Virus record (IMG/VR): IMGVR_UViG_3300024245_000001
Coordinates: 5,907 to 69,906 of that record
Origin: a virus
Lineage: Duplodnaviria > Caudoviricetes
Direction: 5' to 3' (one strand)
DNA: 64,000 nucleotides
The first letter of the stretch is position 1, and each line of letters opens with the position of its first letter. The translations under genes and the position numbers were made by a program. The notes beneath the pieces were generated by a model that saw nothing but the letters and a program-made list of their open reading frames with translations, was not told the DNA's origin and made no database searches. This document shows, one piece after another, positions 1 to 62,249 of the stretch.

Positions 1-332
1 GTGCCGGAGCCCGCCCATGACAGCGGCAACTTGCGCTGGGGATAGAGCGTTCCGACCAGAGGCTCCCCGAACATGAGCATATCGAGCACCAACTCGGGGG
101 CAAAACCCATGTCGGCGTCGATGAACAGGATATGCGAGGCATCAAGGGCATCATAGAAGATCGTCAACGCCATTGAACGCAATTCGGCGATGTCGGGGAA
201 TGACAACGTGGAAACACCGCCACCGATGCCCTTGGCCGCCAGCGCCTGCTGCAGCGCATGCGTAGTCAAAAACGTGGTCGCCGTGATGTGCTGGCCGAAA
301 GCGGGAACGAAGATGAAGATTTTGTTTGCCAT
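1..332 (-). CDS. GT-A fold glycosyltransferase, 5' part (runs off the left edge)
   Basis: Translated by hand from ATG at 332: MANKIFIFVPAFG...SHILFIDADMGF...LVGTLYPQRK. Contains a DxD (DAD) motif after a hydrophobic strand. Not in the supplied ORF track because it is truncated. Confidence 0.7.
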   Translation of the reverse strand, partial: MANKIFIFVPAFGQHITATTFLTTHALQQALAAKGIGGGVSTLSFPDIAELRSMALTIFYDALDASHILFIDADMGFAPELVLDMLMFGEPLVGTLYPQRKLPLSWAGSG

Positions 333-340
333 GAAGTCTC

Positions 341-1234
341 TCAGTTGACGGTCCAGAGGTTGTGTTCGGCGCCGCGGCGAATGGCGGCGTTGGCTTCATC
401 GGTCTTGCCGAGGAACGATTCGTGGTCGGTCATCACCAGGTTCATTTCTCGGGGGGCGCACAGAAGATTGATGCTGGGGCCGATCTCCGGCCAGATATCG
501 CGGGTTTGACCGAAGGCGTTTGCCGGATTGAAATAGTTGTGGAACGACCACCACGCGACGTAGCCGGAGGCATCGAGGAAGTCCGCCAAGGATTCCTCCC
601 GCTCGCGGCCTTCGAGATAGATCAGGGGCCGGCATCGCCGGATCGTATCCTTGGCACCGGCGAGAACGGCCTCCTCCATCCCCTCCACATCGATCTTGAT
701 GAGGTCGCAGCGGTCAAGATCAAGGGCGTCAATGGTGACGACGCGCACCGTCTTGGTCTTGTGGCTGTACTCCGTCACATGGGGCCATGTCTCGGTTCCT
801 TCCCGCACTAGCGACGCGGCCCCGCGATTGGCCACCACGCCCGCCGCCGGGAACGGCGGACAAGGCGCAAACCCCACATGGTCGCTCAACGCCGCCTGCC
901 GGCAACTGACGTTCGAACATCCATTGATGGCCACGTTTCCGGCGAGCATGTGAAACGTCTCTGGAAACGGCTCGAACGCATGGACCTCGCCATCCGTCCC
1001 GACGAACTCGGAAAACGCCACCGTATGCGTTCCGATATTGGCCCCCGCATCAATCACCACATCGCCGGGATGAATGAAGGAACGCAAAAACTCGATCTCG
1101 GTATCGCACCATTCCCCATAGAAATGCAGGGACCGGCCGATGAAAGTGTCCTCAATGTCATACATGAACACGCCGCGCTTGCAGCGTTTGATCCTCATGT
1201 GCTTGTTGACGAGGCCGAAGTTCTTTATTTCCAT
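341..1234 (-). CDS. FkbM-family SAM-dependent methyltransferase
   Basis: VIDAGANIGTH, VHAFEP and IKIDVEGME motifs are typical of FkbM. Confidence 0.9.
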   Translation of the reverse strand: MEIKNFGLVNKHMRIKRCKRGVFMYDIEDTFIGRSLHFYGEWCDTEIEFLRSFIHPGDVVIDAGANIGTHTVAFSEFVGTDGEVHAFEPFPETFHMLAGNVAINGCSNVSCRQAALSDHVGFAPCPPFPAAGVVANRGAASLVREGTETWPHVTEYSHKTKTVRVVTIDALDLDRCDLIKIDVEGMEEAVLAGAKDTIRRCRPLIYLEGREREESLADFLDASGYVAWWSFHNYFNPANAFGQTRDIWPEIGPSINLLCAPREMNLVMTDHESFLGKTDEANAAIRRGAEHNLWTVN

Positions 1235-1928
1235 CTTGCGGCGCCAGCAATTCCCGATTGGCGCCGATCGACTCGATGATGGCGCGGTTCAAAAGCGCAA
1301 AGTAGTGCGGAACTTTCGCGGTGTTGCAGAATTCAAAATCTTGCGGGCATTGGTGATGCTTGACGATGATCCGGTCTTCCCAGGGGTAATAGGTGTTCCA
1401 GAACAGCGGCCCCTTGCGCAGAAGCTTTTCGAGTCGGTCGCCGTCGTCGGTCATCTTCATCAATTCTACCAAGGGATACTTGGCGACGAAGGCGAGTTCC
1501 TTTTCCGAACGCCACACGACATAGCGGTGATGATGGAAGCCTCGATACTCCGGTCCGCCGCCATCGACCCCCTTGGTCAACTCGGCGAGAGGTGACGGCG
1601 TCTCCACATAGCCGGCCCTGGCGACGCGGGACATTTCCGCGCACAGCAGGAACGGATTGAACAGGTCTTCCAGCGTATGCCGGCACACCACAAAGTCGAA
1701 AGCCTTGTCCGCAAACGGCAAGGGCTCGTTGGCGACATCGACCTTGACGAGCTTGTCGGGATCGACGCCTTTGATATCAATCAGGTCGACATAGACATCG
1801 GCGCGCGGGAATGGGCGGATCCCGGGGCCGATTTCGAGAACCTTCCATCCCGGCTGGATGACATTGCCGAGCCATGTGCCGACCTCGGGCAACGGGCCGT
1901 AGTGGCGAACGTCGGACGCGGTGAACAC
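1158..1928 (-). CDS. Class I SAM-dependent methyltransferase
   Basis: VLEIGPG motif I and PFADKAFDFVVCRHTLED. The 3' end overlaps the FkbM start. Confidence 0.8.
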   Translation of the reverse strand: MFTASDVRHYGPLPEVGTWLGNVIQPGWKVLEIGPGIRPFPRADVYVDLIDIKGVDPDKLVKVDVANEPLPFADKAFDFVVCRHTLEDLFNPFLLCAEMSRVARAGYVETPSPLAELTKGVDGGGPEYRGFHHHRYVVWRSEKELAFVAKYPLVELMKMTDDGDRLEKLLRKGPLFWNTYYPWEDRIIVKHHQCPQDFEFCNTAKVPHYFALLNRAIIESIGANRELLAPQDGNKELRPRQQAHEDQTLQARRVHV

Positions 1929-3077
1929 TTAGAGAAATTCGAGATGTGCGGGCGCTTTTTCACTGGGGAACGACGCCTCGCCACGGCTGTACTTGTAGAG
2001 CCACGAATTGGTCTGCGTCTGAAGACAGTTCGGCCCGCAGCGCTCCTGGGGATTGAATTCGTCACTCGCGAGATATTGCACGACCTCCCAGTACCGATCC
2101 GACCGCCAGATGTCCTTGAAGCGTTCCTGCGTGATGTTTCCACAATGAAATGCCTTGTACCTTTCATTGAACAGGAATCCGCATGGAGCAATCAAACCGG
2201 AGCCGCTCATCTGCAATTGGAACGGAGGCCCCATGCACTTCTTGTAATCTCGCTTACCCTCATCGGCGAGTCGCGCCCACTTGACCACAACGCGGAAAGT
2301 CTCGTCGCTGTAGGACTCGGCTTCAAGGAATGTGTCCGTGAGCGCATCGTATTTGGAGTAGTCGACGCCGAGCCTGCCGAGGATGTCATCAGCCGTATGT
2401 TTGAAAATCAAATAATGGGGGCGCAGTTCCTTAGCTAGTTTCGCAAGCGGGATGATCTGGTCGTGAAATTCAGGCATCGTGACCATCTGTAAATTAACAC
2501 TGACCTGCAGATTATCACGACGAACGATGTCCATGGCGTCGCGAACATTCTGGACTACCTGATCATAGTCTCGACCCTTGAGACCCATGATCTCGCTGTA
2601 ACGCTTGCGCTCACCGGCCGAAAAGTTGAAGCGTAAATACGAAATGTGAGGAAGGATGCGTTCGAGCAGCGCTCGCTTCAACCGGACGCCGTTCGTTCCG
2701 ATACCGATCTTGATGCCGAGTTTGGCAGCATGCTCGATGGAATCGACGTACCACGGCACAACTGTCGACTCGCCATCGCTGATGAGACTGATGCCGCGCA
2801 CGCCGATCTCGGCAGCATCATCAAGAAAATCGAACGCGTGTTTCTTTGTGATGTGTCCACCCTCGTTTGCCTGGAGGGTCGCATAACAAAAAACGCAGCT
2901 CGCATTGCATTGCCGCGTCCAAGCGACATCCATCGTGACCGGCGCAATACGCTCACCACGAGACCACGCCTCCACTCGATCGCGCCACCACCCAATCTTG
3001 CTGCCATCAAGCACGAGATCGTGAACCGCCGACCCGGTGACGACATGATTGATGAGCTCGGGAAGGGGAGAGGTCAT
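1929..3077 (-). CDS. Radical SAM protein with SPASM/twitch-type C-terminal domain
   Basis: CxxxCxxC (CNASCVFC). C-terminal Cys pattern KKCMG...IAPCG...GNI...CGPNC. Confidence 0.9.
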   Translation of the reverse strand: MTSPLPELINHVVTGSAVHDLVLDGSKIGWWRDRVEAWSRGERIAPVTMDVAWTRQCNASCVFCYATLQANEGGHITKKHAFDFLDDAAEIGVRGISLISDGESTVVPWYVDSIEHAAKLGIKIGIGTNGVRLKRALLERILPHISYLRFNFSAGERKRYSEIMGLKGRDYDQVVQNVRDAMDIVRRDNLQVSVNLQMVTMPEFHDQIIPLAKLAKELRPHYLIFKHTADDILGRLGVDYSKYDALTDTFLEAESYSDETFRVVVKWARLADEGKRDYKKCMGPPFQLQMSGSGLIAPCGFLFNERYKAFHCGNITQERFKDIWRSDRYWEVVQYLASDEFNPQERCGPNCLQTQTNSWLYKYSRGEASFPSEKAPAHLEFL

Positions 3078-3274
3078 AGCTTCGCCCTCTGTTCCGCCGT
3101 CATCGATCGCCGCAACTTGGAATCATCGGCCATGGTTTCCTTGAACACCTCGCAGGGAGCCGCCGTGATCTCACGCAGGCTTTTCTCGAATGCCAGGAGT
3201 GCGCGGCCTTGGGCATCGGCGGGAATGCCGGAGCCGAACTTGACGAGGACGTGATAGCGGGGAAGGTCGATCAA
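3074..3274 (-). CDS. Hypothetical protein, 66 aa
   Basis: 4-bp overlaps with both neighbours in the operon. Confidence 0.6.
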   Translation of the reverse strand: MIDLPRYHVLVKFGSGIPADAQGRALLAFEKSLREITAAPCEVFKETMADDSKLRRSMTAEQRAKL

Positions 3275-3501
3275 TTTAACGGGCTCATATTTTTGAGTTT
3301 ATGGACGGCCATCGTTTTTCGAATCTGATCGCTGACAAAATCGATCATCATCTCTTGAGACGATTCGCTCTCGTAATAAGAGGCGATCATGGTGGCGAGG
3401 ACGGTCAACGCGACGCGAACGGACATATTCGGCCCAACCGTCTCATGCAGAGCGGTTGTTATGTCGTTAGACATATTTAGCACGCGCTGCGCTTCGGTCA
3501 T
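3271..3501 (-). CDS. Hypothetical protein, 76 aa
   Basis: ATGA-type overlaps on both sides. Confidence 0.5.
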   Translation of the reverse strand: MTEAQRVLNMSNDITTALHETVGPNMSVRVALTVLATMIASYYESESSQEMMIDFVSDQIRKTMAVHKLKNMSPLN

Positions 3502-4037
3502 GCGGCACGCTGATCCCCATACAGTTCCGTCCGCTCTACCAGGATGGTCGAGCAGTCATCCACCAGCGCCCGCCGATAGGCCGGCATGATCGATTCCGCC
3601 TCCGGCAACTGGATCACCTTGATGGTCCGCAGCATCTTGTGGAACGCTTTGGAGAAGTCGTCGTCGTGCTGCGGCCCTGGATAGAACGGCTTCGTTGCGG
3701 GGGTTGCCACGCGAATGATGACCTTTGGCCGATAGCCGCCCGCCGAGTACAGCGGAAGGCGATCGAGATGATTGACCAACTGATTCGCAGCACACAGCAT
3801 AAAATTCCAGCGCGGAAACACGCAGACCGGTAGCATTCCGTCAATTGCCATGCCGGTGGCGATTCCCATCTGCATGTCCTCGGCGACGGGCATTTCGAGG
3901 AGTTGGTCGCGTGGCACATCACGGAACGTCGGGCTCATGGTCGTGCCGGGATTGGCGACACCTTGACCGAGGAAGATCGCGCGGCGCTCTTTCGCCAGAG
4001 TCGCCATGGCGAAGCAAAGTTCGGAGAAGTAGTTCAT
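3498..4037 (-). CDS. ThDP-dependent enzyme, E1-beta/transketolase pyrimidine-binding domain only
   Basis: LLEMPVAEDMQMGIATGMAIDG.LPV matches the E1-beta Pyr domain. Only 179 aa. Confidence 0.85.
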   Translation of the reverse strand: MNYFSELCFAMATLAKERRAIFLGQGVANPGTTMSPTFRDVPRDQLLEMPVAEDMQMGIATGMAIDGMLPVCVFPRWNFMLCAANQLVNHLDRLPLYSAGGYRPKVIIRVATPATKPFYPGPQHDDDFSKAFHKMLRTIKVIQLPEAESIMPAYRRALVDDCSTILVERTELYGDQRAA

Positions 4038-4622
4038 TCAGAACCGCACGTACTTCCCAACGCCCACATGAGGCCGCGTCAGCCCGTAATAATACCGCGT
4101 CTCGTCAGGAACGCGCCGCGCCGTTCCCCACACTTCGTCGGTTCGCGTACAGACCGACACACCATTGTCCTCGATCACGAACGACACAGGCAGATCATGC
4201 CCGGTGCAGTATTTGACGCATTCGTGATAGATGCCCGTGGTTGCCGTCATGTCGCCGACGAAACAGTGGACTCGCTCAGGCCCGTTGCGCCGCTTGATGG
4301 ACATTCCTAAGCCGGTTGCAATCGGGCATGTTCCGCCAACGATGGCAGAGGACAAGATGCGATACCGTGGAAAGCATAGCGCAATCGAGCGCCCGTCGAG
4401 AATCGCTTGCTTGACCTCTTGGGGCAACACTCCGGCCAGCAGCGCGTGGTAATGGCTCCTCCATTGACTTAGAACCCAGTCGCCCGGGCGCACTTGTTTC
4501 CTGAAATACTCGATCAGCCACGACTCGTTCCCCCCTGCGAGATGGACCGGAGATGCGATCTTGCCGGCCGCGAACTCGGCGGCGATGTCGGCTTCGAAGG
4601 CGAGAAGATCATCGGCGGTCAC
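4038..4622 (-). CDS. ThDP-dependent enzyme, minimal E1-alpha-like subunit
   Basis: HLAGGNE, WRSHYHAL, SSAIVGG, and a ThDP-binding motif variant FVGD...FVIEDNG. Confidence 0.85.
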   Translation of the reverse strand: MTADDLLAFEADIAAEFAAGKIASPVHLAGGNESWLIEYFRKQVRPGDWVLSQWRSHYHALLAGVLPQEVKQAILDGRSIALCFPRYRILSSAIVGGTCPIATGLGMSIKRRNGPERVHCFVGDMTATTGIYHECVKYCTGHDLPVSFVIEDNGVSVCTRTDEVWGTARRVPDETRYYYGLTRPHVGVGKYVRF

Positions 4623-5144
4623 TCAATCCACCAGTCGGTCAAGGATCGCGTGCAGGATGGCGAGATGCGCGGTCTCGACCACGCCATAGCTCTGCGATGG
4701 GACATAAAAGTTGATGTCGCCCATGGAACGCAGCATGTTGTCTGGGGCAAAGCCAGTGAGGGTCACCACAGTTGCCGTGCCCTTCGCCATCAGCGCCGGC
4801 ACGATGATGCTCTGCGAGTTTCCCGAGCTGGAAATGGCAAACACCATGTCCCCATCGCGGCAATGGGCGCGCAATTGGTTGTTGAAGACGTGGTGATAGC
4901 CGTAGTCGTTTCCGAGGCAGGTTAGAGCGGCCCCATCATTGAAGGCCATGGCGGCGAATTTACCCTTATTCAGCCAATCGATCGACATGTGCGAGGCGAT
5001 GGCCGCCGAGCCGCCGTTGCCGATGAAGAACACGCGACCATTCCTGGCGCGAACAACTTTCGCGACCTCAATAGTCGGCTCAAACCCCGAAAGATCGGAG
5101 TCTAAAACGGCGCAATCGAACTCACGTAACCACGTAAACTTCAC
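4623..5144 (-). CDS. gmhA: SIS-domain sugar-phosphate isomerase (GmhA-like)
   Basis: FFIGNGGSAAIASH, AISSSGNS, YGVVETAH. Confidence 0.85.
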   Translation of the reverse strand: MKFTWLREFDCAVLDSDLSGFEPTIEVAKVVRARNGRVFFIGNGGSAAIASHMSIDWLNKGKFAAMAFNDGAALTCLGNDYGYHHVFNNQLRAHCRDGDMVFAISSSGNSQSIIVPALMAKGTATVVTLTGFAPDNMLRSMGDINFYVPSQSYGVVETAHLAILHAILDRLVD

Positions 5145-6523
5145 GCCAGCAACGCCCCGATCGTCTGTGTCAGTTCTGCCCGTTGCACATGCCGGCGGTG
5201 CCCCACGATCGACGCCTTGATGGCGCCTGCGACGTTGCCGGCGAAAGCCGCCATTTCGAGGTCAAGGCCAGCGGCAACCAAAGGAGCGGCCGTTGCAAGG
5301 AATGCGTCCCCGCACCCCATGGTGTCGACGCCATGGATCGCGAAGGCAGGAACATCGGAGAACCGCTCGGAGTCGTCCGCACAATAGGCGAGGCTGCCAT
5401 GACGGCCGTGGGTGACGACGAACCGATGCGACTTGATGCGGCAGGAGAGATGCCACACCACCGCCCTGATATCGGCATCCTGCATGCCGGCGGCGAGTCG
5501 CGCCTCCGGATCATCGACACAGACGAGATCGGCTTTCTTGTATGCCGTCACCGGATTGAACCCGCAGTTTCCGGCATTGGTCTGCGCATTGACGGCGAGG
5601 AACTTGGCAGTTTCAACGACATGGCGCTCGCGCGAGTCCATCAGCCCATGCCCGAAGTCCATCACCACGACCACGTCATTGTCACGCACCGCCTCGATCA
5701 GCTTGCATTGGAAGCGATCGCGCTCGGATGGATGCAACTCGATCTTGCGGGTGTTGTAGACCTCGAACAGTTTCTTGGTGAAGTCGCCATCGACATAGCG
5801 GGTCTTTACGACCGGGGAGTCTGCACTGACAACGGTCGTGAGAGGCCATTCGGCGTGTTGTGCCGCCGCCGCAATTCCTCCCAGGAAATCCTCTCGATGG
5901 TGCTCGACCGTGGCCAGGATGAATTCCTTGGATGGCTTTCCAAGAGCGTGGACATATCGGTATTCGTCGACGATCGTCTCTCCCACGAACGCGATACGCA
6001 ATCGATCAGCGCGCTCAAAAGCATCAACAATATGCTGATGAAAGCCGCGAGATACAGCGTCCCGAAGATAAGCAGATACGGAATCAGGAAAGCGATCTGC
6101 ATTGATCAGCCTCGACGAGGAGAACTTTTCCGAGCGCGTGATGTGGAGCCGACCGCCGTGGCGAGTTGCGGCCAAGGTCTCGCGGGCAAGCGCTTCATCA
6201 TTCGATTCGGCGTAGTCGATGCCCTTGACGTAGACCGCAGGCTTGATCCGATCGATGACATCTACCGCGTCGGCCGAGTCCGACACGAAGGCGTCATCGA
6301 CGCAATCAAGCGCCTTCAACGCTTCGATGCGATGATCTGCGGTGTGGATCGGGCGGCCCAGCCCCTTGCCCACATGAGCATCGGCCGTGACGGAGACGAC
6401 GAGCCGATCGCCTTGCGCTTTAGCCTCCTGCAGATGGCGGATGTGCCCGAGATGGAGGACATCGAAGCATCCATGGGCGAGGACGAGCTTTTCCGTGGGG
6501 ACGACGCGGAGATTACCGTGCAT
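5141..6523 (-). CDS. Bifunctional nucleotidyltransferase + PfkB-type sugar kinase (HldE/RfaE-like, NT domain first)
   Basis: N-terminal HGCFDVLHLGHIRHL and YVKGIDY. C-terminal AFVGETIVDEY and DTMGCGDAF (PfkB signature). Confidence 0.85.
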   Translation of the reverse strand: MHGNLRVVPTEKLVLAHGCFDVLHLGHIRHLQEAKAQGDRLVVSVTADAHVGKGLGRPIHTADHRIEALKALDCVDDAFVSDSADAVDVIDRIKPAVYVKGIDYAESNDEALARETLAATRHGGRLHITRSEKFSSSRLINADRFPDSVSAYLRDAVSRGFHQHIVDAFERADRLRIAFVGETIVDEYRYVHALGKPSKEFILATVEHHREDFLGGIAAAAQHAEWPLTTVVSADSPVVKTRYVDGDFTKKLFEVYNTRKIELHPSERDRFQCKLIEAVRDNDVVVVMDFGHGLMDSRERHVVETAKFLAVNAQTNAGNCGFNPVTAYKKADLVCVDDPEARLAAGMQDADIRAVVWHLSCRIKSHRFVVTHGRHGSLAYCADDSERFSDVPAFAIHGVDTMGCGDAFLATAAPLVAAGLDLEMAAFAGNVAGAIKASIVGHRRHVQRAELTQTIGALLA

Positions 6524-6714
6524 TACATGTTACCCCACAACTCAACCTTCATCCCCTTTTCTGGAAAAGGGAACACGCGGCCAATTTCATCAAACCACAT
6601 AGGAATTCCAAAGATTTTTTTCTTTCTCATAAGAGACATATCTTCAAACCGGACCATAGCAAGAGTGTACGACACACCACCCACTGTGCAGTAGGCCCTC
6701 ATTACGCCACCCAC
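6523..6714 (-). CDS. Small hypothetical protein, AT-richer than flanks
   Basis: Fills the gap between two operon genes. Confidence 0.4.
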   Translation of the reverse strand: MGGVMRAYCTVGGVSYTLAMVRFEDMSLMRKKKIFGIPMWFDEIGRVFPFPEKGMKVELWGNM

Positions 6715-7676
6715 CGCTTGATCGCCGACTCGAACTTCGCCGGATACGCAGTCGGCAACCCCTGCGCCGTGGACGGCATCAACGCCTGTCGAAACCGCGC
6801 CGCTTCCGATGGATCCATACCGTAGTCATCCAGCAAGTGCGGGATCATCGCAATGGCTTTGTCCTTGACGCGCTGATAGCGCGCATCGTCGGTCGAGAGT
6901 TTCGACCACGCCTCGAGGTTCGGCGCATTGGCTCGCACGCTGTCATTGATCCAGCGGGAGCGGTACTCGATCAGCGGGGCACACGACTTGATGCGCTCCT
7001 TGTCTTTCTTCCCCGCAAAAAATTTCAAGTCATCCATGTCTAGGATGTCAAATGCCTGCTTGCGCAGCATCAAATACGCCGCATCGAACCACGTCGCCCA
7101 CCAGCCCGGCTCCCGCAATTCCTGCGTCTTGCCGACATGGCTCTGATCCGTTCTCACATCGGCGAAGGAAATGCGATCGATCAATCGGGCGAGGTTGTCG
7201 GTCCAGTGGTCGCAGAACCAGTAGGGGAAGTATTCGGGGAAGATTTTGTTCCCCATAGCCTTGACCAGCCCAGCAGTGGGTGCAACCACTCCGGAGAAAG
7301 ATGCGTTGGCCATGTGGCCGTACACCATACCGATCCCGTCCGGGAAACGAGCTGCAGCCTCCAGAAGCCGAGTGTCGTATCCTGGGGTGATGTAGGGATC
7401 GTCATCGGCAGCCACCAAGTAGAGATCAGCGGGGATTTCCGTAGCACGGTTCCACTTAGCCGCAATGGTGTCCTCGCGCGGCCTCACAGACACAAAAACG
7501 CGATGATCGGTCTGCGATGAGTAAAAGGTGGCGGCGTCAATTGATCCTTGATCGTCGGCGTCGCACATGACCCACATTTCGGTGTCAGGATGCGTCCAAT
7601 TCGCCACTGATCTCCGAATCGTATCGAGCAACTGAGTCGGACGCCCACGGGTCGCCAACGAAATAACAAGCCTCAT
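6702..7676 (-). CDS. Putative GT2/GT-A glycosyltransferase
   Basis: N-terminal ISLATRGRP..LL..I strand, AKWN, LVAADDD acidic motif, and PEYFPYWFCDHW resembling the GT2 catalytic region. Confidence 0.6.
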   Translation of the reverse strand: MRLVISLATRGRPTQLLDTIRRSVANWTHPDTEMWVMCDADDQGSIDAATFYSSQTDHRVFVSVRPREDTIAAKWNRATEIPADLYLVAADDDPYITPGYDTRLLEAAARFPDGIGMVYGHMANASFSGVVAPTAGLVKAMGNKIFPEYFPYWFCDHWTDNLARLIDRISFADVRTDQSHVGKTQELREPGWWATWFDAAYLMLRKQAFDILDMDDLKFFAGKKDKERIKSCAPLIEYRSRWINDSVRANAPNLEAWSKLSTDDARYQRVKDKAIAMIPHLLDDYGMDPSEAARFRQALMPSTAQGLPTAYPAKFESAIKRWVA

Positions 7677-7718
7677 CTACACCGTCCTTAATGCGCGGTT
7701 TTGCCGGCCTTTGGTGGA

Positions 7719-8366
7719 TCACTCCCCAGGATTCGCCAGTTCATGCTTCGGCGCAGGGACGGCCGCCGCATTCCCCTGGTCATCGTAATAGAGCGCCCGA
7801 TCGATCTGCATGCGGATATCCCCGCCGGCTCCACGGTATTTGGACGAGGTCGAGAATCCCGGCGCGTTCTTGGTGACACCGGAGAGTTTCAGCGCTTCAT
7901 TCTGGTCGCTCAATTGCGCCTTGGCCTTGCGGATTTCCTCGACGCGAGCTTCTTGCGAGAGCGACATCGGCCGCTCCTCCAATTGGAGGCCATCAACAAT
8001 GATGGGGCCGGTCGTCCCTGGCATGGCATAGCGGCCGGGATAGCGGTCATGCGGCACCGGGCGCCAGCCATTGGCGAACATCTCCAGGGATTGCTGGGCG
8101 AGCACGTCCTTGTTGTTCAGGACGGAGATCGCATTCCATTGCAAGTCCCATCCGGGCTCGCGCATGTCGTCGGTGATGGCGAACCTGTCGCCGACGCCGG
8201 TTCGGGTGCGGGAGAGGATTTCCCCATTGCGGCCACGCACCACGGCGTCGGCTCGAGCCGGGTCACGGGCGGGCTCGCGCGTGGCATTGCGTGATCCTAG
8301 CGCACGCCCACGGGGGCGCTTCTCCATGGCGCCGGACTTGACTTCGTCGGTATGGTCGATGTTCAT
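7719..8366 (-). CDS. Conserved-type phage head-region hypothetical protein
   Basis: 215 aa, good codon usage, sits downstream of the scaffold-like gene. Confidence 0.65.
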   Translation of the reverse strand: MNIDHTDEVKSGAMEKRPRGRALGSRNATREPARDPARADAVVRGRNGEILSRTRTGVGDRFAITDDMREPGWDLQWNAISVLNNKDVLAQQSLEMFANGWRPVPHDRYPGRYAMPGTTGPIIVDGLQLEERPMSLSQEARVEEIRKAKAQLSDQNEALKLSGVTKNAPGFSTSSKYRGAGGDIRMQIDRALYYDDQGNAAAVPAPKHELANPGE

Positions 8367-8654: not shown

Positions 8655-9647
8655 TTACGACTCCGTGTAAGACTTGTCGTAGCGGCCCTGCTTCATCATC
8701 GCGAGCTTGCGGCGGGCAAACTCCTGGGTGCCGATCGCGCGGCCGATGAGAGAGGCATCCTTGATCCTGCCGGCCGCAAGATCGTGCTTGCCCCATACGT
8801 GGGTCGCGCCGTCGTTCGCTGCGGCGACCTCGCCGGCACTCAGGCGCACCTCTTGGCCGCCGCCATTGCTTCCCACGCTTGCGCTCCCGTTGCCGCCATT
8901 GACAGGCGCCACCGGCGCCGCCGGCTTCGGTGCAGGACGCCCCGACCCGTTCGTGGCCGCGCCATTGCCGTTCGGCTTTTGCCGCAGTCCGAGATAGGTC
9001 TCGACGTGGGCGAAATATGCCGGCGTGTCGGCGACGAGCCCTTCGGCTTCCGCATCGAAATGCGCGGCCGATAGCTTCTTGCTCTTGCGCGGGTCTTCGA
9101 CCCATTCCCGATGGGCGCGCATCCAGTCCGCGGTGGGCTGGGTGAAGCGACTGACATGGTCCTCGAACACATCACCGGACCGCTGTTGTGGCTGCGGCAA
9201 TTCGGGACGCGGTGCCGCCTTCCTCGCCTCGAGATCGGCCTTGGCCTCATCGAGGCGCACGATCTTCGCTTCCGCGCTGGCGATGCGACGCTGCGCCTTG
9301 GCTGCGGCGATGAAGTCGCCCTTTTCCATACAGGAGGCATATTCGGCTTCGGCCGAAGCCGCTTCGCTCTGCGCAGCCGCGAGACCGGACGCCACCGTGT
9401 CGAGTTGGCTTTCGGCGACCTGACTGTGGGCTGCCGTCGCCTCACGACGCGCCGTATCGGCCGCTCGTGAAGCCTCATTGGCCCGCCTGCGTTCGGCGGC
9501 GAGCTCGGCGTCCTTGCGCCGCTCGGATTCCTCAAATTGAGCCTTGAGCGCGGCAACGGCATCGGCTTCCGGCTCAGTCTTCGCACCTGAAGCCGCGCCC
9601 TCGCCCTCGACAATCGTGATGATTTCGTCTTCGTCAGCCATCACCAC
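8655..9647 (-). CDS. Putative capsid scaffolding protein
   Basis: Acidic N-terminus, long Ala/Glu coiled coil, Pro-rich linker; located after portal and GroES. Confidence 0.6.
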   Translation of the reverse strand: MVMADEDEIITIVEGEGAASGAKTEPEADAVAALKAQFEESERRKDAELAAERRRANEASRAADTARREATAAHSQVAESQLDTVASGLAAAQSEAASAEAEYASCMEKGDFIAAAKAQRRIASAEAKIVRLDEAKADLEARKAAPRPELPQPQQRSGDVFEDHVSRFTQPTADWMRAHREWVEDPRKSKKLSAAHFDAEAEGLVADTPAYFAHVETYLGLRQKPNGNGAATNGSGRPAPKPAAPVAPVNGGNGSASVGSNGGGQEVRLSAGEVAAANDGATHVWGKHDLAAGRIKDASLIGRAIGTQEFARRKLAMMKQGRYDKSYTES

Positions 9648-10063
9648 ACCAGCGCGGGATCAGCCACGCGCCCCTTGATCTGCGTGTCCTCGAACAGACG
9701 GCAGGCCGTGCCGCCGTCTTTTTTGTCGACCGAAAAGAGTTCGTAGCCGTCACCGGCACGGTAGAAGACCCAATCGCCCTCCTGCACCGTCACGCCGGCA
9801 AAGGTCGCGATGTTGTCATCGACAAACGCCTTCGGACCGAGCTTGACGACGAGGCCCACCTTGCCCTGGAAACGATCTTCGGCAAGCGCATTGTCGGGAA
9901 GAAAGATGCCGCCCTTGGTCTGTTCCGGCCGGATGTAGGTCGCAACGAGGACTTGGCTGTGGAATATCTCGACCCCGGAAATATCACCAAGAGAATCGAG
10001 CAGCGCTCGCTTGGGGTCAGTCTGGGCCGCCGCGGCGACCTCGCGAAGCTTGGCACGGGCCAT
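9641..10063 (-). CDS. groES: Phage co-chaperonin GroES-like protein
   Basis: VLVATYIRPEQTKGGIFLP (mobile loop), GLVVKLGP, VQEGDWVFY. Confidence 0.8.
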   Translation of the reverse strand: MARAKLREVAAAAQTDPKRALLDSLGDISGVEIFHSQVLVATYIRPEQTKGGIFLPDNALAEDRFQGKVGLVVKLGPKAFVDDNIATFAGVTVQEGDWVFYRAGDGYELFSVDKKDGGTACRLFEDTQIKGRVADPALVW

Positions 10064-11172: not shown

Positions 11173-11366
11173 TTTGCTTCTCCGTAAGTAGCAAACCCTT
11201 TTTGGACCGCATACCAAAGGTATGGATTGTCTCGGATCGCCTTCATTTCCCGCATCGACAACGGAATCAAGGATCCAGCGTCGTGATCGGCTTGTGCCTT
11301 TCGTAGGGCGGCATCTAAATCCGCATCGCTCCAGCCACGCCACCAATCACTCAAGCGAGACATCAC
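11169..11366 (-). CDS. Hypothetical protein, 65 aa
   Basis: ATGA overlaps with portal and with the downstream gene. Confidence 0.5.
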   Translation of the reverse strand: MMSRLSDWWRGWSDADLDAALRKAQADHDAGSLIPLSMREMKAIRDNPYLWYAVQKGFATYGEAK

Positions 11367-13615
11367 TTTTTCCCTTTCGGCTTGGTCGGCTTCGGCTCCG
11401 GCTTCGTCGCCTCGAATTGATTCAGTTCATGTTCCCGTTCGGCCATCTGCATGTCGTGCGCGGCCGTCGTTACATCCAGCGCGTGTTTCTGCTGTTCGAG
11501 ACCGTGCCGCTGTTGCTCCAATCCGTGGTCGCGCAATGCCGACTCGCGATCGGACGCGACCTGGTGCATTTCGCGCACGAGATCGCCGCGATGAATTACC
11601 TCTTCGCGTTGCAGATTGAGGCCGGCAATGCGCTCCTGCGAGGATATTTCAGCCGCTTTGAGCGTCGCGTCAGCCCCGGACGACTGCGCATCGACCGCAT
11701 TCTTCTGCGCCCCGGTCTGCGCCTTGATCATATTGGCTTGCGCAGCAAGCATCTTCGCCGGATCGGGCGGGGGTCCACCCGCCTGCGGGGGCGGGTCGAC
11801 GATCAGCCCGTTGGGATCATCGCGCAGCGCTCGGATGCACCGCGTCGCAATCTCTTTCCCCGACAGAAACTCGCCGACACCTGGCGTCTGTTTCAACTGC
11901 ACCAGCCCCCACGCCTTCATGATCCGGTGAATGTGGCTCGGCGTATTCGGATCGGCGCGCGGGATCAGCTTCTTGTCATTGAACGCCGCAGTCAGCTTGT
12001 CCGCGTCCCAGAAACCTTCCGGCGCCACGTCATTTGAGCGCCAAAAATCCTCCGGATGCCGGCGGAACAGCTTGATCAGCAGTTCCATTTCGTCCTTGAG
12101 CGCAACCACCATGTCCTTGTGCGAGGCGGACATGATCTTGGTGGCCTGCTCGATCTGGGCGAGCATGGTGCCGACCGGGACGTTCTGGAGGCCCTCCCCG
12201 ACCGGAACCTCGACGCTGCCTGACAACTCCTTGGCTTGCGCGCTGATCGCCTCGCGCATACTCATGAGGCCGGGCGTCACGTCCCGGTAGGGCATCGGCA
12301 TGACCATCTGATTGATGGCCATATTGCCGTTAGGGTCGATCGGCATGAACTCGCCAGGGCCAACCCGGAAATTCGAGGTGTTTTGCCGGCTCGCCCCCTT
12401 GAGCACGAGCCCGCCGGGGAAACTCGCAAACATCCCGGCATCGAGCCCTTCGCGGTCGACCGCGGTGAGGGCCGCCGACGAATTGCCGAGCATGTTGAGC
12501 ATGCCGGTGCCATAGAACCCAGGACCGGGCACCAGCGGGAATTTGACATACATCCGCGTGCGCTGGCACTCGGCATCGTCCTCGTCCCAATCACGACGAA
12601 GATTGAGGATTTCCCGAGAATCCTTGTCGAGGGTGACGAGATAGGGAAGCGGGATGCCCTCGTCCTTGAACTTGCCCGGCGCGTATTCCGGCAGGTCCAG
12701 CTCGCACTGGGTTTCCCATAGCGTATAGGGCTGATCCTCGGGGCGATCTGGATTGACCTTGACGCCCTGGATGCCAGCAATCTTCTGATCAACCGTGTTC
12801 GGCGTCGGGTTAGGCTGCGTCAACGTCACATCGCGGTAGGCGCCGAGCAGCATCATGCGCTTCATCACCGAGGGGCGCATGGTGATCTGGTGGGTGATCC
12901 GTCCGCAGGATCGGAAATCCTTGCTGGTATCGGATACAATCAAGTCCTTGGCGTCGACCGATTCCGACACGGGACGACGCCGCATCGGGCAGCGGTAGAC
13001 CTTCTTGAACCCGGAACCGCCGAAATAGGTGCCCCACAAGATCATGTGCGAGGTGTCGGGGTAATATTCCGGCGCTCCCGTGGTGTAGTACCAGTTCATA
13101 TCGCGCTCAAGGGCATCGGCGAGATCGTCCTCCGGGACCGTCTCGTCGCCCTCGACTTCGATCTTGACCGGACCTTCCGCCGGCAACAACTCCGCCCTTG
13201 CATTGGCCCAGCCCTTGAGGATGGCCTCCAGCAGCAACGGATTGGTGACGCTGGACATCCCCTCGCTCGAGGACGATGTATCGCCGACCGTGGCCTTGGG
13301 TTCCTCGAGCTTTAGGCCGAGCAGATCAAGCCCGCGGGCGCGGGTCGTGAGATATTGCGAGCGTGAATTGTCGTCCGCCGTGATCGCGTCGTGGAGTTCA
13401 TTGGCGATCTTGGATAGCGTATTGGGGTCGATCTTGAGCGCCAGATTGGCATAGTGGTCGGCTTCCGGAGGCTTCGGCCGATGGTCGGACAGCGACACGA
13501 TGACATCGCCGTTGGCCTCGCGCTGTTCGAGCGCGCCGGTCTCGGAATCGATATGGATGGTGTTGTTGTCGTCGTCATCCTCGATGTGGACGACGATGGG
13601 GGCGGCGTCAGCCAT
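11363..13615 (-). CDS. Portal protein
   Basis: 750 aa, just downstream of terL. G..FKKVY motif, PGPGFYG.G motif, coiled-coil C-terminal barrel as in P22-like portals. Confidence 0.85.
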   Translation of the reverse strand: MADAAPIVVHIEDDDDNNTIHIDSETGALEQREANGDVIVSLSDHRPKPPEADHYANLALKIDPNTLSKIANELHDAITADDNSRSQYLTTRARGLDLLGLKLEEPKATVGDTSSSSEGMSSVTNPLLLEAILKGWANARAELLPAEGPVKIEVEGDETVPEDDLADALERDMNWYYTTGAPEYYPDTSHMILWGTYFGGSGFKKVYRCPMRRRPVSESVDAKDLIVSDTSKDFRSCGRITHQITMRPSVMKRMMLLGAYRDVTLTQPNPTPNTVDQKIAGIQGVKVNPDRPEDQPYTLWETQCELDLPEYAPGKFKDEGIPLPYLVTLDKDSREILNLRRDWDEDDAECQRTRMYVKFPLVPGPGFYGTGMLNMLGNSSAALTAVDREGLDAGMFASFPGGLVLKGASRQNTSNFRVGPGEFMPIDPNGNMAINQMVMPMPYRDVTPGLMSMREAISAQAKELSGSVEVPVGEGLQNVPVGTMLAQIEQATKIMSASHKDMVVALKDEMELLIKLFRRHPEDFWRSNDVAPEGFWDADKLTAAFNDKKLIPRADPNTPSHIHRIMKAWGLVQLKQTPGVGEFLSGKEIATRCIRALRDDPNGLIVDPPPQAGGPPPDPAKMLAAQANMIKAQTGAQKNAVDAQSSGADATLKAAEISSQERIAGLNLQREEVIHRGDLVREMHQVASDRESALRDHGLEQQRHGLEQQKHALDVTTAAHDMQMAEREHELNQFEATKPEPKPTKPKGKK

Positions 13616-13859: not shown

Positions 13860-14122
13860 TTCGACCTCACAATCCGCGGCTTCTTGTCCTCGAACATCGC
13901 CGCATGAATCTTCATCTTGAGATCGTCGCACCCGATGTTGAGCGCGCCGCCGTTCTTACCCGCCATCACCGTGGCAATGCCGTCATCCATGCAAACGACG
14001 ATCGCGACCGAGGAGATGCGGCCCTTGACGGCCTCCTCCAATGCGTCGGTGAGGACATCGACGCAGTTCTGCTGCATTTCATCGAGTGGCTTGGAGACGG
14101 GGAGGATGATGGAGGAGGTCAT
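13856..14122 (-). CDS. Hypothetical protein, 88 aa
   Basis: ATGA overlap with the HNH gene. Confidence 0.6.
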   Translation of the reverse strand: MTSSIILPVSKPLDEMQQNCVDVLTDALEEAVKGRISSVAIVVCMDDGIATVMAGKNGGALNIGCDDLKMKIHAAMFEDKKPRIVRSK

Positions 14123-14628
14123 GCAACCCTCGCAAAATCGCCGAATGCCTCAGTCGCGGCCCTCGCGTATGCTGCCGAGGCTTCCTCTAGCGTGCCAAAA
14201 GTTCCAATATGGCGTCCCTTCAGACGCGCCCTAAATCTTCCGATTTTCGTCCTCTCAACACCCTTGACGCCCAATGCGCTGTCAGCACGGACACGTTGAT
14301 TGGCGCGCTGAAGCGAAAACGTAGCTTCTCTCAAATTTTCTAAACGGTTGTCGTCTCGACACATATTTTTGTGGTCAATTTGACCAATAGGCCATGAACC
14401 ATGCACATAGAACCACGCAAGTCTGTGCGCGCTATAGACGTAACCATCAATGCCGATTTGGCGATGACCATGCCTATCAAGTTGGCCAGCCGCAACTCCC
14501 ACCTTTACTTTGCCACCGAATGAATTCTTTTCAATTTTCCAGGTAAACACCCCAGTGAGCGGATCATAGGAAAGACATGCCAGAAGGCGACTATGTGTCA
14601 GGCCGTTCCGCCGCTCACCAAATCTCAT
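14119..14628 (-). CDS. HNH homing endonuclease with AP2-like C-terminus
   Basis: LSYDPLTGVFTW, AHRLAWFY, IDHKN...DNRLENLR, GVKGV...FRARL...HIGTF. Confidence 0.9.
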   Translation of the reverse strand: MRFGERRNGLTHSRLLACLSYDPLTGVFTWKIEKNSFGGKVKVGVAAGQLDRHGHRQIGIDGYVYSAHRLAWFYVHGSWPIGQIDHKNMCRDDNRLENLREATFSLQRANQRVRADSALGVKGVERTKIGRFRARLKGRHIGTFGTLEEASAAYARAATEAFGDFARVA

Positions 14629-14638: not shown

Positions 14639-16396
14639 TCAGCAAGGATAGATCGCTCGCGGTCTCGGTCGATGCGTCACGGCCTCGGTTTCTGCCGCCG
14701 CCGCCTCGTCATCGCTCTGCGCCAGGCCGATCCCCCGCAGATAATTGATCGCCTGCGTCGCAGAATCGGTCAGATCGTCATAGCGGGCCTTGGGAAAGGT
14801 TGCCATTTCATCGATCACCATGTCGGCCCATTCCCGCGCTGGAGCGTAAACCATGCCCTGCGAGAATGTCGGCTGCGCCGCAAGTGCCCGCGCCACCTTG
14901 TCGCCCTTGACCGGGCAAAGCGAGATCGCCCAACCCTCGCGGCCGTGGCGGTTCTGAAGTTCCTGCCCCGCAGAAATACCGGAGGCCTTGGCCTCGATCA
15001 GCACCGTATGAACCTGAAACCGCCGACAGGTATCGGCGATCCATTCCACCATGCCCCAGTTCGGCATGCCGCGGCGACGATAGGCTTCGGTGGTCTCATT
15101 CGGCAGCCGGTCGAGCTTCGGTGCCGAGAACTTGAGATGCTTGCGCCAAGCGTGCAGGAGAATGATCCGTCGCCGGCCATGCTCGTTGCGGAACACACCC
15201 CACACCGTAAGGCCGGTCGGGTCGTTTTCTTCCTTCTCGGTGAAGGCACCGTCGACCGACGCAACCTTGTAGTCGAGCTCGGGAAACCGTCCATCCGGAG
15301 GATCCCACAACTGCCACCAGTCGCGTTGGAAGATGCCGCCGCCGCGGGGAGCGGGGCTCTGCTGGTATTGCGAAGCCCAGGCGTAGGGGCCGACCTCGGC
15401 CTTGGTGCGGGCGAGCGCGGTCTCGGAAAACCGCTCAGGCCAAGCCAATTCCCCATCGCAGGCATCAGGACCGTCCGCATCATACCGCGGATCGGTCCAT
15501 CCGATAGCTGTGGCGATTGGCCGCCCGCGCTCGTCGGTCTGCCGACCCCAGTCGTACTCCATCGGGATCAACAGATGGACGTAATCAAGCCCAAGATCGA
15601 GGATAACCCCAGAGACATCATCCTCATGCACCCGCTGCATGATGATGATCAGCGCGCCGGTCTCAAGATCGTTGAACCGCGAACTCAGCGACTCCCGGAA
15701 CCACCGGACGGTTTCGCCGCGGACCTGTTCGGATTCGGATTCCTTGACGTTGTGGGGGTCGTCGAGGATAACGCGGTCGCCGCGCTCTCCGGTTCCCACC
15801 CCGCCCACCGAAGAGGCGAACTTCCATCCGGTTCGGCTGTTGATGACCTTGATGATGGTTTTGTTGCGAACTTCCAGCCGATCTCCGTAAAGAGACCGGA
15901 AAGCCTCGCTCGAAATGAGATCGCGGAATCGCCCATTGTCGCGTTCCGTTAGGCTCGCCGAGTAGGAAAAGGTGACATAGCGCAGATGCGGCTTATTGCA
16001 GGCGCCCCATTCCCATGCCGGCCAGAAGCAATCAACGATGATGCTCTTGGCGAAGCCGGGAGGAACATTGATCAGGAGCCGGGTGATTTCCCCGAAGGTG
16101 ACGGCTTCAAGATGCTCGCAGACCGCCCACAGCGCCCAGCCATCAACGAACTTGGTCTCCGGCTCGAGCACACGCCAGAAGTACCGCACGAAGGCGATCA
16201 ATCCGCCTTGGCGCACCCCATTCTCGTCATACCATCCCCGCCGGCCTTGGTTGCGCCGCTCCTCCCGCCGCTCTGCCTCCTGCAGGCGAGCGAGGAAATC
16301 CTCCATCTCCCGGCGCGAAACACCCTCGGCCTTCGCCCCGGTCAGCGCAATGGCACCCCCGACAGCGCCACCAAGAAATGACCTTCGATCCACCAT
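14639..16396 (-). CDS. terL: Terminase large subunit
   Basis: LLINVPPGFAKS (Walker A), VILDDPH (Walker B), LIIIMQR, YQQSP, DGAF, and a C-terminal RNase H-like FP...DDLTDS. Confidence 0.95.
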   Translation of the reverse strand: MVDRRSFLGGAVGGAIALTGAKAEGVSRREMEDFLARLQEAERREERRNQGRRGWYDENGVRQGGLIAFVRYFWRVLEPETKFVDGWALWAVCEHLEAVTFGEITRLLINVPPGFAKSIIVDCFWPAWEWGACNKPHLRYVTFSYSASLTERDNGRFRDLISSEAFRSLYGDRLEVRNKTIIKVINSRTGWKFASSVGGVGTGERGDRVILDDPHNVKESESEQVRGETVRWFRESLSSRFNDLETGALIIIMQRVHEDDVSGVILDLGLDYVHLLIPMEYDWGRQTDERGRPIATAIGWTDPRYDADGPDACDGELAWPERFSETALARTKAEVGPYAWASQYQQSPAPRGGGIFQRDWWQLWDPPDGRFPELDYKVASVDGAFTEKEENDPTGLTVWGVFRNEHGRRRIILLHAWRKHLKFSAPKLDRLPNETTEAYRRRGMPNWGMVEWIADTCRRFQVHTVLIEAKASGISAGQELQNRHGREGWAISLCPVKGDKVARALAAQPTFSQGMVYAPAREWADMVIDEMATFPKARYDDLTDSATQAINYLRGIGLAQSDDEAAAAETEAVTHRPRPRAIYPC

Positions 16397-42265: not shown

Positions 42266-42299
42266 GGCGAATCTCTCCTGTCGTTTCATCTGAATTGAA

Positions 42300-42533
42300 C
42301 TATTTCGGCCCCTGCCGTCGCAGCCGCTCCACCATCCCGAGCAACGCCGCTCCCGAGAGCGGAGCCCCGTAAGTTCCCCGCCCGAAGAACTCATCGGCCG
42401 GTATCTCGATCGAGCGCCGCCTTCCCCGTCTCCCCTCGCCCCAATAGGCCACCACCTCGATCATGGTGGGCCAGCCCTCGGAAGGCTCATGGGTGCGGGT
42501 GCGGGCGAGTTCTCCATAGCGTTCGGTCGGCAT
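42300..42533 (-). CDS. Hypothetical protein
   Basis: Plausible composition and position. Confidence 0.5.
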   Translation of the reverse strand: MPTERYGELARTRTHEPSEGWPTMIEVVAYWGEGRRGRRRSIEIPADEFFGRGTYGAPLSGAALLGMVERLRRQGPK

Positions 42534-51494: not shown

Positions 51495-51525
51495 AATGCG
51501 ATATACCATATACATAACGAAATGT

Positions 51526-56501: not shown

Positions 56502-56565
56502 TAAAATCGCGCTTACTGACCTGGGTAAGTATTGAATGCGGAAAAAACCGCACCATATACCAACC

Positions 56566-61814: not shown

Positions 61815-62249
61815 TCACCCGAATCCGCTGGAGAATCCAGACGAAAACGCCCTCGGCGTCGCCGGAGGAGAAGTCGTTCCAGTCGCCGTGTCCTGAAGAT
61901 TGGATTCAAGCCGCGAGGTCCCATCCAACTGAAGCCGGATCGTTCCGTCCTGCTGGTAGCGGTATTGATGTTCATCGATGTAATAGGCTTCCGGCCGCGC
62001 ATTGACGATGCCCACGGGATCGGGAGGCAGGAAGATGCTGCCGAGTTGACGCTGGGGTTGGTCGAGGCAATAATCACAGACTATCGCCCTCGTATTAGCT
62101 AGCCGAACGCCCCTCCACTCGAACTGCCAGTTGAGCTTGCGCAAATTCCAAACGAACCCGCAACGAGTACAAGTTGCCCAGACAGAAGGGGCGCTTGAGT
62201 CTGTCTCTGCGTATCGTGGGTGAGGCCTCATAGCGGGTTCGGACACCAC
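61815..62249 (-). CDS. Conserved-type virion-module protein with CxxC pairs
   Basis: CTRCG...QFEWRG...VCDYCLD.PQ.QL. Confidence 0.65.
   Translation of the reverse strand: MVSEPAMRPHPRYAETDSSAPSVWATCTRCGFVWNLRKLNWQFEWRGVRLANTRAIVCDYCLDQPQRQLGSIFLPPDPVGIVNARPEAYYIDEHQYRYQQDGTIRLQLDGTSRLESNLQDTATGTTSPPATPRAFSSGFSSGFG

Follow-up and report, generated by a model that had tools for sequence, protein, structure and literature searches.

A sugar cassette in the head operon

The window analysed here is a stretch of 64,000 nucleotides, bases 5907-69906 of IMG/VR record IMGVR_UViG_3300024245_000001, an uncultured phage of 69,906 bp in total, and at its start (window 1-7676) it holds a cassette of sugar biosynthesis, tailoring and glycosyltransferase (GT) genes, all on the minus strand and co-directional. 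The record is complete, with a CheckV completeness of 100% and a 127-bp exact terminal repeat. In the order of transcription the large terminase gene (TerL) is followed by genes for an HNH endonuclease, the portal, p341, p85, a GroES-like co-chaperonin, p330, p96 and p215, and then by the cassette (Table 1). Nine enzyme genes and one conserved small gene, s66, make up the cassette, ten in all: a first GT, an HldE-like nucleotidyltransferase/kinase, a GmhA-like isomerase, the alpha and beta subunits of a thiamine diphosphate (ThDP) enzyme, s66, a radical S-adenosylmethionine (SAM) enzyme, two SAM methyltransferases and a second GT.

An earlier note made from the letters of this DNA had described a co-directional, tightly overlapping run of rare-sugar and GT genes after the portal, GroES and scaffold-like genes, and most junctions in the cassette are indeed 4-nt overlaps or direct abutments; the gene identities that it assigned were upheld by Pfam and NCBIfam searches. 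Its count of ten genes holds as nine enzymes plus s66, whereas two other small open reading frames (ORFs) fare less well. s63, which gave no family match and no tblastn match in 63 related loci, is probably not a gene, since it has no counterpart in any relative; s76, also without a match in family searches, occurs only in three relatives of 97-99% identity. Promoter-like and terminator-like sites in the cassette run are at the counts expected from shuffled sequence, with no excess, and an Rfam search of genome positions 1-8000, which hold the lower part of the cassette, returned no match and no riboswitch. No membrane-type hydrophobic segment was found in any cassette protein. From the gene order, the cassette would be expressed late.

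The placement of the cluster between scaffold and capsid, proposed before any capsid gene was in view, was confirmed in the 5.9 kb of the same record that precede the window start. There the second GT gene extends 534 bases past the window start. After it come p195 (195 aa), the major capsid protein (MCP) gene, which lies 1.3 kb outside the window, then an HNH/EndoVII homing endonuclease and the Thr-rich p425. The name "scaffold" for p330 reflects its composition and position, since hidden Markov model (HMM) searches gave no match; its place after GroES is kept in all relatives. p215, at the other edge of the insertion site, gave no match in family searches. p195 is a probable cement/decoration-like protein, with a structure model of predicted local distance difference test (pLDDT) 70.8 and a protein-atlas lead also toward cement.

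Table 1. Features of the cassette, of the surrounding genome and of related loci. Positions are those of the window unless another locus is named; L001 is the fetched 5.9 kb of the same record preceding the window start.
Feature	Position	Strand	Match or remark
Second GT, 288 aa	L001:5372-6238	-	N-terminal 110 aa = window 3-332 (ORF starts 332); rest genome 5372-5908
FkbM-family methyltransferase	341-1234	-	TIGR01444 E 2.7e-30, over cut-off
Class I SAM methyltransferase Methyltransf_11	1158-1928	-	Pfam E 2.5e-6, 28.5 bits, over cut-off
Radical SAM/SPASM enzyme (twitch-type C-terminal domain), 382 aa	1929-3077	-	Radical_SAM E 1.8e-14, SPASM E 5.3e-7
s66, 66-aa conserved small protein	3074-3274	-	Immediately upstream of radical SAM gene
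s76, small ORF	3271-3501	-	4-nt overlaps on both sides
Mini ThDP Pyr-domain subunit, E1-beta-like, 179 aa	3498-4037	-	Pfam Transket_pyr E 9.3e-7
Mini ThDP PP-domain subunit, E1-alpha-like, 194 aa	4038-4622	-	Pfam E1_dh E 2.6e-10
GmhA-like sedoheptulose-7-phosphate isomerase, SIS domain	4623-5144	-	NCBIfam phosphoheptose isomerase E 7.8e-25
HldE-like nucleotidyltransferase/kinase	5141-6523	-	CTP_transf_like E 1.9e-17, PfkB E 4.6e-11
s63, 63-codon ORF filling the GT2-HldE gap	6523-6714	-	Doubtful
First GT, GT2 family, 324 aa, soluble	6702-7676	-	Glycos_transf_2 26.7 bits vs cut-off 23.3
p215, head-module protein	7719-8366	-	Upstream edge of insertion site
p330, scaffold-like, 330 aa	8655-9647	-	N-terminal half Ala/Glu/Arg-rich
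GroES-like co-chaperonin	9641-10063	-	Pfam Cpn10 E 1.1e-7, phrog_3188 E 1.1e-9
Portal	11363-13615	-	phrog_1216 E 1e-13; tblastn to annotated portal/head-to-tail connecting proteins, best 40.6% identity
Large terminase TerL	14639-16396		phrog_38, E 4e-91
MCP, 304 aa	L001:3649-4563	-	Mu gpT-like; PF10124 E 3.5e-5, phrog_371 E 1.2e-7
Homing-endonuclease-type genes	14119-14628, 50712-51515, 62228-63196; L001:2458-3603		
Phosphoadenosine-phosphosulfate-reductase-like protein, 314 aa	21892-22836	-	phrog_424, E 6e-48
Tail-fibre/tail-spike proteins	41192-42394, 54456-56567	-	Peptidase_S74 intramolecular chaperone E 5.5e-8, endosialidase beta-barrel-like domain E 3.4e-5
Thr-rich protein, 757 aa	59534-61807	-	Tandem ~50-aa repeats
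127-bp exact repeat	63874-64000; genome 1-127		
GT2 fused to second GT-A enzyme, 550 aa	L041:5353-7002		
Anp1-like GT domain fused to class I methyltransferase, 544 aa	L058:4946-6577		
Thr/Val-rich protein of another lineage	L061:4887-9257		
Bacterial core copy L150	G274:C1:1143000-1160953		HldE-like, ThDP alpha/beta, radical SAM 53-55% identity; s66 in one of L150 and L151
Bacterial core copy L151	G132:C56:33000-52999		As for L150

Predicted route to a tailored heptose

From these genes we infer a pathway: the sequence of its reactions, what the radical SAM enzyme does, how the sugar is built and which acceptor receives it. Its first enzymes resemble those of the ADP-heptose pathway (GmhA/HldE/GmhB/HldD) in that an SIS isomerase, a PfkB kinase and a cytidylyltransferase-fold nucleotidyltransferase are encoded together. 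The HldE-like protein has an HxGH-type motif (LHLGH) and a GCGD kinase motif, and its best NCBIfam matches, rfaE domain II at E 9.5e-30 and rfaE domain I at E 6e-17, fall under the equivalog cut-offs in both cases. Its CTP_transf_like domain occupies residues 16-140 and its PfkB domain residues 328-438, the inverse of the order in HldE, and the same inversion is seen in relatives and in a contig (L010) of a metagenome-assembled genome (MAG). The GmhA-like protein carries the motifs GNGGS and SSSGNS and matches gmhA at E 3.6e-22, with a phosphoheptose isomerase/gmhA score of 87.8 bits against an equivalog cut-off of 276 bits; its gene is absent in some relatives (L038, L041). No GmhB/HAD phosphatase was found in the complete genome (TIGR00213, PF13242; positive controls worked), which agrees with the report of viral heptose enzyme sets that lack the phosphatase (PMC11461863). 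The cassette departs from the ADP-heptose pathway in the inverted domain order, in scores far below equivalog level and in that family scans of the cassette proteins found no member of the HldD-type Epimerase/SDR family; it is unlike the lipopolysaccharide (LPS) heptose pathway in coupling radical SAM, ThDP and methyltransferase tailoring enzymes to the heptose genes. In a first step the GmhA-like and domain-swapped HldE-like enzymes would convert sedoheptulose-7-phosphate to a nucleotide-activated heptose, with the host supplying the phosphatase step.

The radical SAM enzyme scores over cut-off for both Radical_SAM (54.7 bits) and SPASM (30.3 bits) and reaches no NCBIfam equivalog. Across 21 homologues the invariant cysteines are C57, C61 and C64 of a CX3CX2C motif together with C281, C299, C347 and C351, and the enzyme has more than 6,000 database homologues, in more than 120 clusters at 65% identity or above, many of them on 60-73-kb contigs. 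In 53 of 63 loci, with unrelated phage lineages included, the small gene s66 precedes the radical SAM gene, mostly directly; its product shows a conserved motif, DDSKLR...T..QRAKL, at its C-terminus, has no conserved cysteine and gave no match in family searches. Sugar-acting twitch/SPASM radical SAM enzymes include the dehydrogenase BtrN, the dehydratase AprD4, DesII and HygY. The cassette enzyme is like these in joining CX3CX2C to a four-Cys C-terminal domain within a sugar pathway that needs a carbonyl, and unlike them in having no significant sequence similarity to them and a 66-aa partner that has no counterpart there. Since family scans of the cassette proteins found no SDR dehydratase or oxidoreductase, the carbonyl for a ThDP carboligase must have another source, and the radical SAM enzyme is the obvious candidate because it has four invariant C-terminal cysteines and faintly matches the twitch region of BtrN. 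In a second step the radical SAM/twitch enzyme and its 66-aa partner would create a carbonyl on the sugar, by a BtrN-type dehydrogenase or an AprD4-type dehydratase reaction.

Both subunits of the ThDP enzyme are unusually small, with a pyrophosphate-binding (PP) domain on the alpha and a pyrimidine-binding (Pyr) domain on the beta subunit. The alpha subunit contains a GD...N ThDP/Mg motif and matches TIGR03182 at E 1.7e-19 over only the first ~180 of 315 profile positions; a sequence-level PDB search returned only BCKDH E1-alpha, at E about 5e-4. Its short length is a family trait, because nearly all of the best 120 of its 2,717 database homologues are 190-200 aa long. The beta subunit has a conserved Glu within a PVAE motif and matches the NCBIfam PDH E1-beta profile at E 1.8e-11 over positions 51-180 of 327, with no C-terminal domain. 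Two routes to a pyruvate-derived C-4 acetyl branch on a keto sugar are known, one by E1-like pairs (AviB1/AviB2) and one by a single protein, YerE (PMC4753412). The cassette resembles AviB1/AviB2 (Pau11/Pau12) systems in placing an E1 alpha/beta-like ThDP pair, with ThDP and Glu motifs present, within a sugar cluster; it differs in that its subunits are bare PP (194 aa) and Pyr (179 aa) domains compared with about 320 aa each, the beta with Transketolase_C, and, from both AviB1/AviB2 and YerE, in lacking a nucleoside diphosphate (NDP)-hexose 4,6-dehydratase and in a backbone that would be heptose-type and not 6-deoxyhexose.

The analogy to AviB1/B2 and YerE had already been drawn in the earlier note, and the relatives strengthen it. 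In several of them (L013-15, L026-27, L030, L038-39) the mini-E1 pair is replaced by a 573-580-aa TPP_enzyme_N/M/C protein encoded directly after the radical SAM gene, so that a YerE-like enzyme stands at the mini-E1 locus and the two known solutions are mirrored; the TPP_enzyme representative from L053 matches JanthE (8RPH), a YerE-like aldehyde-ketone carboligase (PMC12188165), at E 2e-118, against E 3e-74 for the best acetolactate synthase. The cassette of the phage under study has no such YerE-like single-polypeptide ThDP enzyme. A split transketolase-like pair sits directly after the radical SAM gene in L041, and two loci carry longer forms: L058 has an E1-alpha-like protein (304 aa), L010 an E1-beta-like one with Transketolase_C (378 aa). 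Because relatives swap the mini-E1 pair for a YerE-like or transketolase-like enzyme, two-carbon transfer by ThDP is, as judged from gene content, a conserved step for which the enzyme type (mini-E1, YerE/JanthE-like or split transketolase-like) is interchangeable; because a transketolase-like variant exists, chain extension instead of branching is possible. In a third step, the mini ThDP enzyme would add a pyruvate-derived two-carbon unit to the carbonyl and so give a branch or a chain extension.

In a fourth step one or two SAM methyltransferases would methylate the ThDP product. The Methyltransf_11 gene is present in 27 relatives, and the FkbM gene is a variable accessory, limited to the nearest relatives and L071. 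The GT2 enzyme has 22 relatives of 38-63% identity. The second GT gave no Pfam match and none in a sequence-level PDB search; a DxD motif (D72-x-D74, in FIDADM) and a SEDLSF motif are invariant in 22 homologues, and its AlphaFold2 (AF2) model (pLDDT 79.5) gave 161 PDB matches at E <=0.001, those listed being mostly GT-A enzymes. The top fold matches are STIV A197 (E 1.2e-8) and the collagen-modifying LH3/ColGalT1, then Mnn9 and PBCV-1 A64R; by this model the second GT has a GT-A fold. Gene fusions tie transferases and methylation to one product: in L041 the GT2 is joined to the second GT-A enzyme, and in L058 a class I methyltransferase carries an Anp1-like GT domain. In a fifth step the two soluble GT-A enzymes would pass the sugar to a cytoplasmic acceptor.

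Relatives and the insertion site

No near-identical DNA was found in the cultured-phage collection, and none of the cultured phages is a near relative. The best portal match belongs to an uncultured "Manatee Spring" phage, which has GroES, p330-like and p215-like genes, small ORFs, a p195-like gene and MCP, and lacks the cassette. Related loci were sampled by profile, 62 from IMG/VR with the radical SAM profile and 80 with a capsid-protein profile, and 68 related loci cover the p215-p195 junction. The full cassette occupies this junction in 17 of the 68 (median gap 8.7 kb), in keeping with the position between scaffold and capsid that had been predicted for it; two hold the second GT alone (L070, L071), one of them with an FkbM methyltransferase, and in the remaining 49 the junction is empty, with a median gap of about 266 bp. 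Every phage with a full cassette belongs to a clade whose MCP is at least 87% identical to the MCP of the phage studied here.

Pervasive pseudogenization in relatives, which the earlier note had named as evidence that would refute its reading, was looked for and not seen: median identities are 51-62% for the cassette enzymes, compared with 57% for the portal and 41% for the scaffold-like protein, and in-match stop codons are rare (6 of several hundred, in GT2, HldE and Methyltransf_11). The reading frames thus appear intact in relatives, and the cassette is real, intact, conserved and mobile. HNH genes stand at differing places within the cassette in relatives L006, L012 and L048. Among the 80 loci sampled by capsid protein (L067-L144), the MCP is ~90% identical inside each of two clades and ~60% between them, and the portal, GroES, scaffold-like and cement-like proteins of those phages are only 43-62% identical to each other; on these sequence comparisons the capsid gene is under much stronger constraint than the genes around it, or was exchanged more recently.

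The HldE-GmhA-ThDP-s66-radical SAM core is also found in at least two other phage lineages, at several loci within a few kb of TerL, a T7-type portal (phrog_332), an SU10-type portal (PF23899) or the head closure protein Hc3. At several of these loci it is accompanied by an OGT-like TPR+GT41 protein glycosyltransferase (E 4e-43), and a 1,457-aa protein beside the core is 20% Thr, 18% Val and 0.8% charged. Proteins of this Thr/Val-rich kind (1,000-1,457 aa, ~20% Thr, 18% Val, 12% Ser, 0.8% charged, with repeats) occur in L061, L019, L042, L046, L047, L049, L053 and L063, with homologues in L024, L029, L054, L057 and L069; in other lineages they adjoin either the sugar core or the GT41/TPR enzyme, and in some head-operon relatives they lie downstream of MCP, p425 and p202.

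The core is not confined to phages. A radical SAM homologue of 51-55% identity was found in 5 of 301 bacterial genomes sampled from the class of a MAG match, and the two loci with enough flank (L150, L151) have HldE-like and ThDP subunit genes beside it. tblastn with the phage's own queries found no phage head genes within 18-20 kb of either. One bacterial copy belongs to a small genome and stands close to one end of a 1.16-Mb contig, where the GC content is 26%.

Destination of the sugar

The product of the cassette is most likely a carbon-extended, methylated seven-carbon sugar of an unusual kind, and it is probably attached to the phage's own head, made late in infection. That the cassette as a whole is a late-expressed virion glycosylation set, inserted at a fixed site of the head operon between p215 and p195 + MCP, is a reading to which we give an even chance. 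The likeliest acceptor would then be a virion protein that is assembled concurrently, namely the cement-like p195, MCP, the Thr-rich p425 or a tail fibre. The insertion site beside cement-like and capsid genes supports a virion target, as does the solubility of all of the enzymes; the reduced variants that have lost the sugar genes keep a GT next to p195; the best folds for the second GT include viral and protein-modifying GT-A enzymes; and the core stands in the head modules of other lineages, beside TPR+GT41 OGT-like enzymes.

To our knowledge, virion glycosylation is established for few phages only, and those borrow host sugar nucleotides. The present locus resembles the mycobacteriophage systems in that GT genes adjoin capsid genes, an arrangement kept in 17 relatives, and resembles capsid glycosylation in chlorovirus PBCV-1 in that a soluble GT-A enzyme is virus-encoded, with A64R, as well as STIV A197, among the fold matches of the second GT. 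It is unlike both in that the phage encodes a whole predicted sugar-nucleotide and tailoring set. Glycosylation of virions by phage GTs in mycobacteriophages is mentioned in PMC11256854 and PMC12363180. No Ser/Thr-rich C-terminal extension was seen on the MCP.

A number of observations weigh against a virion target or against the chemistry proposed for it. The cassette matches lie below NCBIfam equivalog cut-offs, which leaves the substrates uncertain, and the radical SAM enzyme matches solved enzymes only weakly (SkfB over the core fold, E 3e-7; the twitch region of BtrN, E 0.06). Head assembly does not need the cassette, since L077, of the same MCP clade (91% identical), lacks it. No cassette-specific acceptor motif was found in p195, and an N-G-S loop considered as a cassette-linked sequon was rejected, as cassette-less relatives have NGT, NGG or NGS there; MCP conservation (87-93%) as the mark of a glycan-constrained surface was likewise rejected, the cassette-less clade having a median of 89% for MCP against 62% for the portal. 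The phage's own genome holds no homologue of GT41 or of the Thr/Val-rich protein at E <=1. Finally, the core pathway is present in bacterial chromosomes away from phage head genes, and the sugar is therefore not phage-specific.

This last observation also fits a different destination, in which the same modified heptose would be placed late in infection on glycans of the host envelope (those of the LPS core, O-antigen, capsule, S-layer or flagellin) and would block superinfection or the loss of progeny on debris. Heptoses are classic LPS components, the HldE-like, ThDP pair, s66 and radical SAM genes recur in bacteria, one copy of the core on a contig of over a megabase, and a MAG contig pairs the core with SDR 4,6-dehydratase/epimerase genes typical of surface-polysaccharide loci. 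We nevertheless consider this destination unlikely: the cassette proteins have no membrane segment and include no flippase, polymerase or lipid-carrier transferase, at least three phage lineages share the placement in the head operon, the nearest protein-atlas clusters of the second GT are 84-100% viral, the partner in other lineages is a GT41/TPR protein glycosyltransferase, and neither an integrase nor a lysogeny-type expression context was seen beside the cassette. A product that stays free or linked to a small molecule, as a nucleotide sugar serving host takeover, anti-defence or signalling rather than a macromolecular glycan, is more improbable still. Viral NDP-heptose enzymes have been documented with no known use (PMC11461863), and the combination of radical SAM, ThDP and methyltransferase chemistry resembles the tailoring of natural-product sugars (PMC4753412); against this, at least two GTs accompany the core in the head-operon clade, GT41, GT2 and GT4-like enzymes do so in many loci of other lineages, and L070 and L071 retain a GT with the sugar genes lost, so that transfer looks like a selected function.

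The GTs might instead hypermodify bases of the phage DNA with the sugar as a shield from restriction, as in phages that glycosylate 5-hydroxymethylcytosine (5hmC) or 5-hydroxycytosine (5hoC). Phage DNA glycan clusters, those for 5hmC/5hoC glycosylation and arabinosylation included, share with the cassette the logic of isomerase, kinase, nucleotidyltransferase and GT, heptose is among the appendages that they can install, and they are found near structural genes (bioRxiv 10.1101/2023.12.21.572611; PMC13326640). DNA modification had been disfavoured in the earlier note from the late-operon placement, and the complete genome agrees: it lacks a thymidylate-synthase-family enzyme (PF00303) and a C5 DNA methylase (PF00145), with positive controls, and a search for Tet_JBP (PF12851) was negative with an uninformative control. 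Both GTs are of the GT-A type, whereas the heptose- and Kdo-installing DNA GTs described are GT-B and T4 beta-GT-like (bioRxiv 10.1101/2023.12.21.572611), and the cassette sits in the head operon, far from replication genes, so that we hold this explanation to be very unlikely. Least credible to us is that the radical SAM/SPASM enzyme is a peptide maturase, with s66 as its substrate in the manner of a ribosomally synthesized and post-translationally modified peptide (RiPP) that the sugar genes decorate. The frequent position of s66 upstream of the radical SAM gene would fit such a role, as would the peptide substrates of many SPASM enzymes and SkfB as the best solved match, but s66 has no conserved Cys or Gly/Ser-rich core and resembles a small folded domain, the radical SAM gene is always found among sugar-nucleotide and ThDP genes, bacteria included, and the SkfB match is confined to the core radical SAM fold.

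A wider form of the virion glycosylation reading, which we offer tentatively and think rather less probable than not, is that the heads or fibres of a large clade of uncultured phages, and of no fewer than two further lineages, bear a coat of an undescribed sugar of the nine-carbon class, for which the radical SAM enzyme and its 66-aa partner would oxidize or dehydrate an NDP-heptose and the two-domain ThDP enzyme would add C2; the sugar would be copied from a host surface glycan, leaving the virion camouflaged or sticky like the envelope. Literature searches found no description of a phage-encoded pathway of heptose, radical SAM and ThDP enzymes or of such a cassette. To judge from its genes, the cassette would combine known kinds of system (phage glycosylation, the NDP-heptose pathway and ThDP sugar tailoring) with uncharacterized tailoring chemistry and a predicted target.

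What sets this locus apart is that the phage itself carries a complete set for biosynthesis, tailoring and transfer in its head operon, and that hundreds of contigs from uncultured phages, as well as bacterial genomes, have the core too. Should the virion be the acceptor, phages would possess in this cassette a self-sufficient and widespread means of altering their surface, which could affect stability, adsorption, recognition by immune systems or predators and adherence to mucus or polysaccharide. Whatever the target, three subjects lend themselves to biochemistry and have no characterized precedent on heptoses: the module of radical SAM enzyme, s66 and ThDP enzyme; the exchange in nature between mini-E1, YerE-like and transketolase-like enzymes; and the ThDP enzyme of 194 + 179 aa, which comes close to a minimal catalytic unit.

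Several other features of the genome stand beside these subjects. The late operon continues around the ends of the record, because p202, a minus-strand ORF open at genome position 1, runs across the terminal-repeat junction. Spread across the structural operon are at least four genes of homing-endonuclease type (HNH, HNH+EndoVII, GIY-YIG-like and EndoVII), one of them directly after the capsid gene. The 757-aa Thr-rich protein (15% Thr, 5% charged) has NGT, NTT and GGGT motifs in its repeats and no Pfam or PHROG match; it is probably a tail fibre and a possible candidate for a glycan acceptor. The Peptidase_S74 and endosialidase-like domains of the tail-fibre/tail-spike proteins suggest, by their family matches, an adsorption apparatus that binds or degrades polysaccharide, and a further gene of the window encodes a protein that matches phage phosphoadenosine-phosphosulfate-reductase-like proteins.

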